From assembly GCA_036003325.1 (NCBI GenBank), contig DASYSM010000025.1, positions 2,633 through 66,632 of the forward strand: a stretch of DNA of 64,000 nucleotides, in the 5' to 3' direction. Both the position numbers and the translations under genes were made by a program. Source of the DNA: Candidatus Limnocylindrales bacterium. GTDB lineage: Bacteria; Chloroflexota; Limnocylindria; Limnocylindrales; CSP1-4. The notes below the pieces were generated by a model. The model ran no database searches. It was not told where the DNA came from and worked only from the letters and a program-made list of their open reading frames with translations. Positions within the stretch are counted from its first letter, which is position 1. Every line of letters starts with the position of its first letter. Below, piece by piece: positions 36,278 through 38,257 of the stretch.

Positions 36278-37057
36278 ATGGGACTGCTCGACGGCAAGAC
36301 GGCGCTCATCTTCGGCGTCGCCAACGACCACTCGATCGCATGGGGCATCGCACAGGCCCTCCACGAGGCGGGCGCCGAGGTCGGGTTCTCATCGGTCGAA
36401 GGTCTGATCGAGAAGAGGGTCCGGCCGCTCGCCGAGTCGATCGGCGCGACATTCATCGAGCCATGCGATGTCGGCTCGGACGAGCAGATCCGGCACGTCT
36501 TCGATCGCTGGGGCGCGACCCACGACTCGCTCGACGTCCTCGTCCACGCGCTCGCGTTCGCAAAGCGCGAAGAGCTCGAAGGGGCATACGTGGATACGTC
36601 CCGTGACGGCTTCGCGCTGGCGCTCGACATCTCGGCCTACTCACTGGTGGCCCTCGCTCATGCGGCGCGGCCGCAGCTTCGTCGTGGGTCCTCGATCATC
36701 ACGCTGACCTACTACGGCGCCGAGAAGGTTGTCGCCAACTACAACGTGATGGGGGTCGCGAAGGCCGCACTCGAGGCATCCGTCCGCTACCTCGCGGCCG
36801 ACCTCGGCCCCGACGGCATCCGCGTCAACGCGATCAGCGCAGGGCCCGTACGGACGCTCGCGGCCGCGGGCATCGCGGGGTTCAAGGGGATGTACCGCGG
36901 CTTCGCCGACGTCGCGCCGTTGCGAGCCAACATCACGCCCGAGGACGTCGGACGGTCCGCGCTGTACCTCGCGTCGGACCTGTCGAGTGCGGTGACGGGC
37001 GAAGTGCTCTACGTCGACGGCGGGTTCAACGTGGTGGGCGTGCCGACCGGGGAGTGA
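36278..37057 (+). CDS. fabI: enoyl-[acyl-carrier-protein] reductase (NADH) FabI
   Basis: The start MGLLDGKTALIFGVANDHSIAWGIA is canonical. The Tyr/Lys catalytic region is YYGAEKVVANYNVMGVAKAALE, and RVNAISAGPVRTLAA is present. ATG 36278 follows GGAGG. I trimmed it from ORF 35744..37057. Confidence 0.9.
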   Translation: MGLLDGKTALIFGVANDHSIAWGIAQALHEAGAEVGFSSVEGLIEKRVRPLAESIGATFIEPCDVGSDEQIRHVFDRWGATHDSLDVLVHALAFAKREELEGAYVDTSRDGFALALDISAYSLVALAHAARPQLRRGSSIITLTYYGAEKVVANYNVMGVAKAALEASVRYLAADLGPDGIRVNAISAGPVRTLAAAGIAGFKGMYRGFADVAPLRANITPEDVGRSALYLASDLSSAVTGEVLYVDGGFNVVGVPTGE

Positions 37058-37062
37058 CGACG

Positions 37063-37143
37063 GGGCGGTCCGCGGCGTCGGGGCGGTCCGTTACTGCAGG
37101 GCGGTCCGCGGCTGCGCGGCGGTCGTGGCTGCGCGGCGGTCGT
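37063..37143. repeat. short tandem repeats immediately after the fabI stop
   Basis: GGGCGGTCCG occurs at 37063, 37081 and 37099 (18-bp period). GCTGCGCGGCGGTCGT occurs at 37111 and 37128 (17-bp period). Confidence 0.8.
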
Positions 37144-37233
37144 TGCGATCGGGCTGTTCGTGGCGCGGATGCTGTGCGGCTCGGCCTGGGCCGGATGTGG
37201 CACGTGCCGCACGGCTCAGCCCGGGCGGAACGT

Positions 37234-37357
37234 GGTGACCCACGGTCACCGATTCTGGCGCGAAGGGTCCCCGCCGGCCTCGGCGGCAGCCCGCTGGTGA
37301 CCCACGGTCACCGATTTTGGCGCGAAGGCTCCCCGCCGGCCTCGGCGGCAGCCCGCT
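37234..37357. repeat. 62-bp tandem duplication (two full units, two mismatches)
   Basis: Unit 37234-37295 and unit 37296-37357 differ only at GATTCTGG/GATTTTGG and AAGGGTCC/AAGGCTCC. Confidence 0.9.
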
Positions 37358-37624
37358 GGTGACCAACGGTCACCGATATCGGGCCCTGGCACGGCGACGG
37401 ACACCGCTGAGGGCGCGATCGGTGACCACGGGTCACCGCGAGGCCGGTTCGGGTCGCTGGCCGGCTCCATCCGGCCGCGATCGGTGACCGCCGGTCACCA
37501 CGCGGCGGCGAGCGTCGGCTCCGACCACGCTGGCAGCTGGGATCGGTGACCGCCGGTCACCAGCGCCGGGGCGGCCGTCGGCGCGGACCACCCTTTGTGC
37601 CCCGATCGGTGACCGCCGGTCACC
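37234..37624. repeat. array of seven phased 17-bp palindromes GGTGACC-N3-GGTCACC (REP/BIME-like or protein-binding array)
   Basis: The copies lie at 37234-50, 37296-312, 37358-74, 37421-37, 37483-99, 37545-61 and 37608-24, with start-to-start spacing of 62, 62, 63, 62, 62 and 63 bp. The CGAT flank is 3' of copies 1-3 and 5' of copies 4-7. Confidence 0.9.
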
Positions 37625-37637
37625 ACCGCCGTGGCGG

Positions 37638-37790
37638 CTGTCCGCGCCGCTGTCCACGCGGCGGCCGCTGTCCATGCCGCTGTCCACGCGGCGGCGCCTC
37701 GTCCGCGCCGCTGTCCATGCTGCGGCGGCTGTCCGCGCTCCCGTCCGCGCCGCCTTCCGCGCCTCCGTCCGCGCCGCCTTCTGCGTCGCT
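37638..37790. repeat. degenerate GC-rich tandem repeats (30-bp and 24-bp periods) abutting the Fur-gene stop
   Basis: GCCGCTGTCCACGCGGCGG is exact at 37646-64 and 37676-94. GCCGCTGTCCATGC occurs at 37664-77 and 37707-20. GTCCGCGCCGCCTTC occurs at 37743-57 and 37767-81. Confidence 0.8.
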
Positions 37791-38257
37791 CATCCGCCAA
37801 GGGCGGCGGCGCAGTCGGCGCACCGGCCGGAGATGGACAGATGGCTGAGATCGACCGCGAACGCGCGTCGCCGCTCGAGCGAAGCGACCAGCGCTCCGGC
37901 CTCGTCGGCGTCGATCTCCCAGGTGGTCCCGCAGCCGATGCAGTGGAGATGTCCGTGGGCCGCGGTCGGCAGGACGTGGAACTCCTCGCGCCCGTCGGCG
38001 GCGTGGCTGTGGCTCAACAGTCCCAGCTCTTCGAGAACGTCGAGCGTTCGGTAGACGGTCGACGGGATCGTCCCCGGGTCGACCGCGCGGCACCGTTCGA
38101 CGAGCTCGGCGCCGGTGACGTGACCGTCGGTTCGAGCCAGGACGTCGATCAGCACCCGACGTTGCGGCGTCCAGCGGAGGCCGCGCGCGTGCAGCCGGTC
38201 CCGGACGTCGGCCCAGGCGACGGACGCCGGCGCATCGATCGATCCAGAAGCGGTCAT
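37790..38257 (-). CDS. Fur family transcriptional regulator (Zur/Nur-like)
   Basis: The DNA-binding helix reads RWTPQRRVLIDVL..HVTGAELV..TVYRTLDVLEELGLL. The metal sites are HSHAADG, HGHLHCIGCG and GRCADC. Confidence 0.85.
   Translation of the reverse strand: MTASGSIDAPASVAWADVRDRLHARGLRWTPQRRVLIDVLARTDGHVTGAELVERCRAVDPGTIPSTVYRTLDVLEELGLLSHSHAADGREEFHVLPTAAHGHLHCIGCGTTWEIDADEAGALVASLERRRAFAVDLSHLSISGRCADCAAALGG

Follow-up and report, generated by a model that had tools for sequence, protein, structure and literature searches.

A dispersed family of ~62-bp palindromic tandem units in convergent gene spacers of Limnocylindrales

What are the seven evenly spaced palindromes between the fabI and fur genes of an uncultured Limnocylindrales bacterium, and what maintains them? 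The window, i.e. the whole stretch of 64,000 nucleotides analyzed here (Candidatus Limnocylindrales bacterium, GenBank assembly GCA_036003325.1, contig DASYSM010000025.1, positions 2,633 to 66,632 of the forward strand), carries seven copies of GGTGACC-N3-GGTCACC in the convergent spacer between an enoyl-ACP reductase gene (fabI) and a Fur-family regulator gene. An earlier note, made from the sequence alone, had described this array. It proposed a cluster related to repetitive extragenic palindromic (REP) sequences or bacterial interspersed mosaic elements (BIMEs), a phased protein-binding array, or RNA hairpins serving two convergent transcripts. The array is a real, non-random feature, and it is neither specific to this locus nor linked to Fur. 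Its membership in a dispersed family of ~62-bp tandem units restricted to one lineage, the Limnocylindrales (Chloroflexota), is well supported. Equally well supported is the plan of the family arrays: 5–7 units, located in convergent 3'-3' spacers and organized as two opposed half-arrays, with the tails of the units toward the center. The family is small and previously undescribed and comes from soil, from uncultured Chloroflexota of the order Limnocylindrales; our literature search gave no relevant account of the motif or of repeats in Limnocylindria. Limnocylindrales are abundant uncultured bacteria of soil and freshwater. To our knowledge, there are good descriptions of structured extragenic repeats from Proteobacteria and mycobacteria and essentially none from Chloroflexota.

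All seven palindromes of the earlier note were found, with 0 mismatches (Table 1), and their start-to-start spacing of 62, 62, 63, 62, 62 and 63 bp was reproduced. With up to two mismatches allowed, the same seven sites were the sole matches in the 64 kb (0.69 expected; 0 of 100 shuffles reached seven), in agreement with the note's remark that the window has no further paired copy. Three mismatches added five further matches, a number at chance level, and a unit-profile search of the window gave no match beyond the array. Avoidance or enrichment of GGTNACC restriction sites was rejected, with 15 sites observed outside the array vs 12.5 expected. The array is not an assembly artefact, because two independent metagenome contigs (L001 and L002) carry it. 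The convergent neighbors were confirmed by Pfam, and the spacer measured 732 bp; a protein 100% identical to this Fur is recorded from a Candidatus Limnocylindrales metagenome-assembled genome. No open reading frame (ORF) in this spacer passed the codon-position GC filter, which 56 ORFs of the window pass, in agreement with the earlier note's remark on the lack of a credible ORF. Each GGTGACC contains a TGA (37236, 37298, 37360, 37423, 37485, 37547 and 37610), mirrored on the minus strand. No ORF crosses the array because of these stops on both strands of every palindrome and, as 62 is not a multiple of 3, three successive copies shut all three frames in both directions. The TGA stops may be incidental.

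The orientation switch in the middle of the array is real. It concerns whole units and not the GAT flank alone, since the 56-nt arms 37232-37287 and 37571-37626 are inverted and 71% complementary. The array thus has two opposed half-arrays, of 3 + 4 units. Copies 3 and 4 are the only inverted neighbor pair, around a 46-nt central spacer, and all other neighbors are direct repeats. Tandem Repeats Finder gave a period of 62 with 96% identity for copies 1-3, and a period of 63 with 80% identity for a stretch that starts shortly before copy 5 and ends shortly after copy 7. Identity is 97% between units 1 and 2, and 76% between 37501-37563 and 37564-37626. The right-half spacers matched left-type spacers of another array when reverse-complemented, and only then. 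Given the inversion of whole units, the spacers on the right are diverged unit copies, and not the unique sequences the earlier note had taken them for.

We scanned for the palindrome plus GAT, with one genome per species, and the counts that follow are among the matches listed. Most of these were coding matches in metK. The genome MFD04967.bin.2.110 (contigs CAWCQK01) holds an array-free fur locus (L007) plus at least two arrays elsewhere: L049, with five copies spaced 61-62 bp, and L028, with six copies spaced 62-66 bp. Both sit in convergent spacers between unrelated genes, which encode a luciferase-like monooxygenase and a pyridoxal-phosphate-dependent (PLP) decarboxylase at one locus, and a GGDEF protein and the anti-sigma factor RskA at the other. 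All independent array loci were convergent 3'-3' spacers with differing neighbor genes, so that all arrays share the extragenic 3'-end location of REPs; the only genic matches to the motif were the coding ones in metK. The same two-half plan with one switch was found in the window, L049, L028, L128 and L137. In the first four arrays the spacers were 45 nt long in 13 of 21 cases (range 44-49, one of 66). The reverse complement of window spacer S5 matched spacer S2 of L028 (z = 5.7), in the orientation that the flank predicts, and the central spacer of the window was homologous to the central spacers of L028 (z = 5.2). In the window and the related loci fetched (~300 kb of related DNA), the profile search found no solo unit copies, and no other palindrome formed such arrays in those loci. 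The homologous arrays in other convergent spacers refute the idea of a locus-specific system. A link to Fur or fabI was likewise rejected, because unrelated genes border the sister arrays and the array is missing from close relatives that have the same fur.

To describe the unit, copies were oriented by array half, 24 at first and then 29. The consensus was Y-GGTGACC-NNN-GGTCACC-G-A/T-T-T/C-C. It is well supported that the unit consists of a perfect 7-3-7 palindrome, a one-sided invariant G with an A/T-rich tail (GATTC, GATC or GTTTTC), and ~30 nt of unconstrained filler. The base at +1 was G in 29/29 copies, and the seven bases past it contained 32% T vs 15% in the background (p = 5e-9). The upstream flank carried no information; the conserved flank was the 3' G-A-T-(T/C), and from +5 on the flank information was near zero in all copies. 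The base at -1 was T in 16/29 copies and C in 11/29, closing an eighth pair as U.G or C-G; given this closing pair, the eighth pair forms only on the strand of the proximal gene. The T-enriched tail was always on the center-facing side of the palindrome, which makes each half-array co-directional with the gene nearest to it.

Across the 29 copies 94.8% of the cells were paired, the palindrome being 17 nt long (19 with the closing pair), and the free energy of the hairpin was about -13 to -18 kcal/mol. The whole array folded as one long imperfect hairpin, with z about -8 on both strands. The central junction spacer (z = -2.9 / -3.2) was the sole spacer with excess structure; otherwise the spacers form no second hairpin and have no further RNA structure (mean z = -0.36 over 40 folds). 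No Rfam family matched the window at the gathering threshold, nor the interval 36950-37900 at E <= 1. A target-site duplication was rejected for L049, where the 11-nt direct repeat on either side is part of the unit's own spacer motif.

The L049 array was retained at the orthologous locus in L137 and L128. Between L049 and L137, the decarboxylase had 94% amino acid identity and the four-fold sites 73% identity, with 67/70 arm positions identical (Fisher p = 7e-6). Between L049 and L128 these values were 89% (for the part of the gene present in L128), 58% and 62/70 (Fisher p = 8e-7), and 6/15 loop positions were identical. Orthologous spacers aligned at ~62% even with gaps allowed, and their lengths were held at 44-46 nt, with a sole exception of +21 nt. 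Spacer length is thus kept while spacer sequence drifts at about the synonymous rate, which supports the earlier note's view that the phase reflects more than duplication history. Over all arrays, 21 of 24 centre-to-centre spacings were within 0.15 turn of whole turns at 10.4 bp/turn; several contigs are from assemblies presumed to be long-read based, and +/-1-nt differences are to be read with caution. At the orthologous decarboxylase locus of L138, L139 and L140 the array is gone or has left no more than a decayed remnant, and the left-half copies of L128 are decaying, with 2-3 mismatches each.

The fabI-fur array also differs between strains. Contig L001, with flanks ~99% identical to the window, differs by exactly one 62-bp unit: it has 2 + 4 copies (six units vs seven), and the missing one is window unit 1 or 2. 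This answers the check for copy-number variation that the earlier note had suggested. The 12/24/30-bp minisatellite next to the array has an 85-bp deletion in L001 and L002. Given the missing unit and this neighboring deletion, the locus behaves as a variable-number tandem repeat (VNTR). The array has the features of a minisatellite like the mycobacterial interspersed repetitive units (MIRUs), i.e. head-to-tail repeats of 10-100 bp in strain-variable number. It is well supported that unit numbers rise and fall by slippage or unequal exchange, and that arrays arise at new loci and can be lost.

In all relatives examined with a Fur 86-92% identical, gene order was kept and the palindrome was absent at the locus. 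A DUF427 (PF04248) gene separates fur from fabI in L003, L005, L006, L131, L132 and L133; it is located at 10465-11019 in L003, 1533-2078 in L005, 10472-11017 in L006 and 1208-1759 in L132. In L004 and L134 a gene was called directly after fur, and in L007 and L008 fur and fabI are 11 bp apart. Homology of the window to five relatives ends at both stop codons. A degraded DUF427 gene was ruled out as the origin of the spacer, since tblastn found no remnant in it (no match better than E = 0.3). Given these abrupt ends and the absence of a remnant, the whole spacer is a recent lineage-specific replacement. Beside fur-DUF427-fabI, L005 3579-11527 holds small unannotated genes, an N6/N4 DNA methylase, a NusG-like protein and a protein with a DnaA C-terminal domain; this region looks like an integrated mobile element truncating a HAD hydrolase gene.

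Where the unit came from is suggested by metK, the loci of which scored as high as true units in the profile search. The consensus GGTGACC-CTC-GGTCACC-GATTCCGACG(C/T)GAA was identical at 30/31 positions to the antisense of Limnocylindrales metK codons ~12-21 (FTSESVTEGH), 20 of these 31 core bases being imposed by the search pattern. The remaining flank matched the metK antisense at 8, 6 and 10 of 11 positions at three independent loci, with ~3.5 expected. The metK peptide ESVTEGHP is encoded as GAATCGGTGACCGAGGGTCACCC, a coding coincidence with the palindrome plus GAT. Past about +14 there was no similarity to the metK antisense (mean z = 0.77), and homology of the whole 45-nt spacer to it was not supported. 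Descent must run from metK to the repeat, because the universally conserved peptide fixes the metK sequence. Judged from these sequence matches, the founder unit was most likely a captured 5' fragment of metK, in which a chance palindrome would have provided the hairpin. The palindrome plus flank was seen within metK of many high-GC phyla, with GGT as the glycine codon, for example at L084 5340-5372 and L092 5860-5892 (cf. window 37234-37267), and at ~10 more loci (L054, L072, L096, L108, L115, L090, L103, L021, L046 and L074). This recurrence of the 20-mer is an annotation trap, and motif searches for the family must therefore exclude metK.

Our preferred reading, held tentatively at a probability of roughly 0.42, is that the arrays are a structured minisatellite similar to REPs and REPINs (REP doublets forming hairpins), which may give both converging transcripts 3' hairpins acting as terminator or stabilizer. 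We infer a mechanism in which each converging transcript would meet 2-4 copies of a stable hairpin with an 8-bp stem, and then a U-rich tail. Read-through would be attenuated or terminated by these hairpins, which would also protect the 3' ends of the mRNAs and insulate one gene from the other. Because the arms are conserved at the sequence level, a trans-acting factor would also read the hairpin, possibly a mobilizing enzyme or an RNA/DNA-binding protein. Two L049 units had a hairpin plus U-tract qualifying as a terminator on the strand of the proximal gene, with 0.1 expected. REPs are reported to serve as terminators, in part Rho-dependent, and as mRNA stabilizers, and convergent genes with REPs between them tend to be more highly expressed on both sides (bioRxiv 10.64898/2026.03.23.713779). 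Tandem clusters of REPINs in an ordered arrangement, with the REPs a fixed distance apart, are also known (PMC3116915).

A number of results weigh against this reading. Of the window copies, 0/7 passed the scan for hairpin plus U-tract terminators, and consensus terminators of this type were no more frequent in window 1-60000 (4) than in shuffles (~9 expected). Sigma-70-like promoters were at chance level in the same region; standard models miss this organism's transcription signals. Covariation was absent: of 232 cells one had a compensatory change, a count that does not exceed the shuffles, and most arm mutations break pairs. The arms are conserved as sequence, beyond what structure alone explains. 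An RNA role also leaves the 44-46-nt spacer length and the +21-nt exception unaccounted for. The copy number looks low beside the tens to hundreds of a REP family, with one array and no solo copies in 64 kb, and at least two arrays in a related genome. The GTAG tetranucleotide of REPs was absent beside the hairpin. No transposase was seen among the top 25 Pfam families of the 56 window ORFs, nor in five small ORFs scanned singly, and the search for a REP-associated tyrosine transposase (RAYT) was not genome-wide. For the REP/BIME-like cluster, which came closest among the hypotheses of the earlier note, the dispersed extragenic hairpin repeats at gene 3' ends and the strain-variable copy number hold, whereas the orientation switches once and not unit by unit, the GTAG motif is missing and the number of copies looks low. 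The idea of hairpins for two convergent transcripts fits the polarity: each half-array presents its proximal gene with a hairpin followed by a T-enriched tail, and two units of L049 passed the terminator scan on the expected strand.

A phased array on duplex DNA is a serious rival, because it explains the sequence invariance and the spacing better than the RNA model; overall we consider it unlikely. Here a dimeric protein would occupy each site, with half-sites 10 bp apart, and the six-turn spacing would place the sites on nearly one face of the helix. The resulting cooperative nucleoprotein would be a roadblock, an insulator of converging polymerases, a topological barrier or a regulator sink, and its protein might also bind the identical site in metK. 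Arms invariant across loci and species around a free 3-nt center are the classic pattern of an operator, and the missing compensatory evolution, the near-integral turns and the spacers that drift near-neutrally at constant length fit as well. The only large spacer change, +21 nt, equals two turns (62 -> 83), and the same 17-mer plus flank occurs in this clade's metK. However, the conserved flank is one-sided, and T at -1 is as frequent as C, which breaks the dyad symmetry of a dimer site. A constant period also results from tandem duplication alone, and L028 has spacings of 64-66 bp. No array has a candidate binding protein encoded beside it, the neighbors differing per locus, and neither the convergent location nor the polarity matched to transcription is predicted. 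We are similarly doubtful of a purely selfish or neutral repeat, i.e. a non-autonomous element like a REPIN or a miniature inverted-repeat transposable element (MITE), or a self-expanding minisatellite, harmless in convergent spacers. A mobilizing enzyme or hairpin-templated repair would maintain its arms, and the element would serve no function for the host. This would suit the fabI-fur array, present in one lineage only and coinciding with the loss of the DUF427 gene, the loss or decay at the decarboxylase locus, the strain-variable copy number, the REPIN-like folding of the whole array, and its occurrence in just one of the 11 convergent spacers of the window. Against it, vertically inherited arms were conserved far above synonymous sites (four-fold identity only 58%). 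Target-site duplications or terminal inverted repeats were not recognized, the partial check of the window showed no transposase, and the ~300 kb of related DNA had no solo copies.

The metK similarity opens a further explanation, which we regard as very unlikely: read-through RNAs would act as antisense or sponge, carrying the hairpins and a 14-nt seed (GAUUCCGACGYGAA) against metK codons ~12-21. Units of ~62 nt, maybe cut to unit length, would modulate the stability or translation of the mRNA for S-adenosylmethionine (SAM) synthetase; alternatively, the units could titrate a factor binding the same metK site. Beyond the near-identical core and the matches past the searched 20 nt, both half-arrays place the metK-antisense strand in the transcript of the proximal gene, and in window units 1 and 2, two of the three mismatches to perfect complementarity still pair as G.U. 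But conservation past GAT(T) is weak, the right-half flanks have drifted to GATCG or GTTTTC, and the loops are not complementary to metK. Orthologous flanks were not significantly above synonymous sites (21/28 vs 58%; 22/28 vs 73%). The targeted codons are not within the initiation window, self-complementarity would make the arms fold on themselves instead of pairing in trans, and simple descent from a metK fragment explains the similarity. A degenerate or orphan array of clustered regularly interspaced short palindromic repeats (CRISPR), with a short palindromic repeat and fixed-length spacers, is effectively refuted. The 62-bp period, and 44-46-nt spacers of low mutual similarity beside a palindromic repeat, do resemble one. 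The spacers, though, all go back to one unit from which they have diverged, with vertical inheritance at orthologous positions, and this spacer-spacer homology rules the reading out. In addition, the orientation switches in mid-array, the repeat is merely 17-21 bp long (23-55 bp in CRISPR arrays), no phage or plasmid sequence matched, and no core cas family was among the families shown for the 56 window ORFs; generic MarR, ABC-ATPase and kinase domains present in the window are the best explanation for the matches to Csa3, mad and PD-T4-6.

The features of the locus are collected in Table 1. The 17/18-bp minisatellite that follows fabI was absent from the sister arrays L049 and L028. Both flanking minisatellites are GC-rich and contain GTCCGCG.

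Table 1 Features of the fabI-fur spacer and its flanking genes (window positions).
Feature	Position	Strand	Remarks
fabI, enoyl-ACP reductase, left convergent gene	36278..37057	+	Pfam adh_short_C2 PF13561, 1e-86; start codon inferred
fabI-fur convergent spacer	37058..37789	.	732 bp; lineage-specific; nearly all tandem repeats
17/18-bp minisatellite, GGCGGTCCGCGGCTGCGC-like	37061..37147	.	flanks the array; outside the family unit at other loci
Left half-array, palindromes 1-3 (37234-37250, 37296-37312, 37358-37374)	37234..37374	+	each followed by GAT(T/A); co-directional with fabI
Central spacer, inversion junction	37375..37420	.	begins GATATC, ends GCGATC; quasi-palindrome
Right half-array, palindromes 4-7 (37421-37437, 37483-37499, 37545-37561, 37608-37624)	37421..37624	-	on the minus strand each followed by GATC; co-directional with fur
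12/24/30-bp minisatellite, GCTGTCCGCGCC-like	37633..37785	.	just past the fur stop codon; strain-variable length
Fur-family regulator gene, right convergent gene	37790..38257	-	PF01475; neighbor, not partner

Similar palindromes were seen in other settings. A contig of a giant-virus metagenome-assembled genome (MAG), Ga0214919_10000012 = IMGVR GVMAG-M-3300023184-68 (306,671 bp, 34-41% GC; L124-L127, L129, L135 and L136), has many 66-bp tandem units with the same GGTGACC-N3-GGTCACC palindrome in a longer stem (AACTCA...TGAGTT). One variant of this unit has the compensated stem GGTAGC-GAA-GCTACC, and the rest of the 66-bp unit is unrelated to the Limnocylindrales family. A phage or plasmid origin of the family had no support: blastn gave no match in either collection, and the viral scan gave only this giant-virus repeat, which is of a different family. 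L130 509-655 (Ga0187771_10287458, 66% GC) has five copies of GGTGACC-YAG-GGTCACC-ACCCC, three perfect and two with one mismatch, mostly ~22 bp (two helical turns) apart, which is iteron-like and unlike the 62-bp family. Five short palindromes with CGGTGG arms, spaced 33-73 bp, in L036 1481-1700 (Nocardioides sp. URHA0020) are an unrelated repeat that came up in the palindrome screen alone.

If the hairpins mark 3' ends, the family would offer a first handle on how convergent transcripts are separated in high-GC organisms without canonical U-tract terminators in the window. If a protein reads the sites, the array is a ready-made multi-site ligand with which to find it. Should the antisense reading be true, a repeat family would have been recruited from a housekeeping gene to regulate that same gene in trans. 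The array is also usable as a VNTR for strain typing.

Compared with known systems, the arrays recall iteron or centromere-like arrays (parC of plasmid R1, plasmid iterons) in having phased short sites in two blocks, with a conserved site and free spacers. Iterons, however, are usually spaced 11 or 22 bp and are not individually palindromic, whereas the family spacing is six turns. They are also tied to par/rep genes and promoters on plasmids or phages, whereas the family is chromosomal and present at several loci; no par/rep gene or shared neighbor was seen at the array loci. Intrinsic terminators between convergent genes share the GC-rich hairpin and the T-enriched tail, in the right orientation for both transcripts. 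They differ from the family in that the U-tract is weak or absent in most family copies, including all seven of the window, and in that the family has five to seven phased copies of one sequence shared between loci. MIRU-type minisatellites of mycobacteria are likewise direct intergenic repeats of 40-100 bp in a high-GC genome, at several loci and with strain-variable copy number. MIRUs are typically located within operons and have small overlapping ORFs. They have no perfect palindrome and no mirror-image half-arrays, whereas the family units carry TGA on both strands and leave no frame open across three units.

The BIMEs of E. coli are similar as clustered palindromic repeats in extragenic DNA. 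They contain up to about a dozen REPs, are often found after the last gene of an operon, and have been proposed to act in mRNA stabilization, termination and gyrase binding. In BIMEs the Y and Z REPs alternate at every step with defined linkers, whereas the family arrays switch once. The REPs and REPINs of Pseudomonas and Enterobacteria, mobilized by RAYTs, share the most traits with the family: short conserved extragenic palindromes with a one-sided motif orienting each copy, inverted pairing with a whole structure foldable as a long hairpin, location at gene 3' ends with long vertical persistence, and an association with convergent gene pairs, with dual roles as terminator and stabilizer documented for REPs. 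In strain SBW25, REP-to-REP distances are 71 and 110 bp, and ordered tandem clusters reach ~700 bp (PMC3116915). Unlike REPs, the family has a perfect palindrome of 17 bp with a 3-nt loop, a polar motif at the 3' side (G-A-T-T/C) instead of the 5' GTAG, and halves of direct repeats with one central inversion instead of serial inverted doublets. It was seen without solo copies or doublets, its apparent copy number is low, its host phylum is Chloroflexota, and its core looks derived from metK and not from IS200/IS605 ends. The family thus stands out by an unusual combination: an invariant palindrome under purifying selection, six-turn spacing with drifting spacers, mirror half-arrays matched to the genes, and a core traceable to metK.

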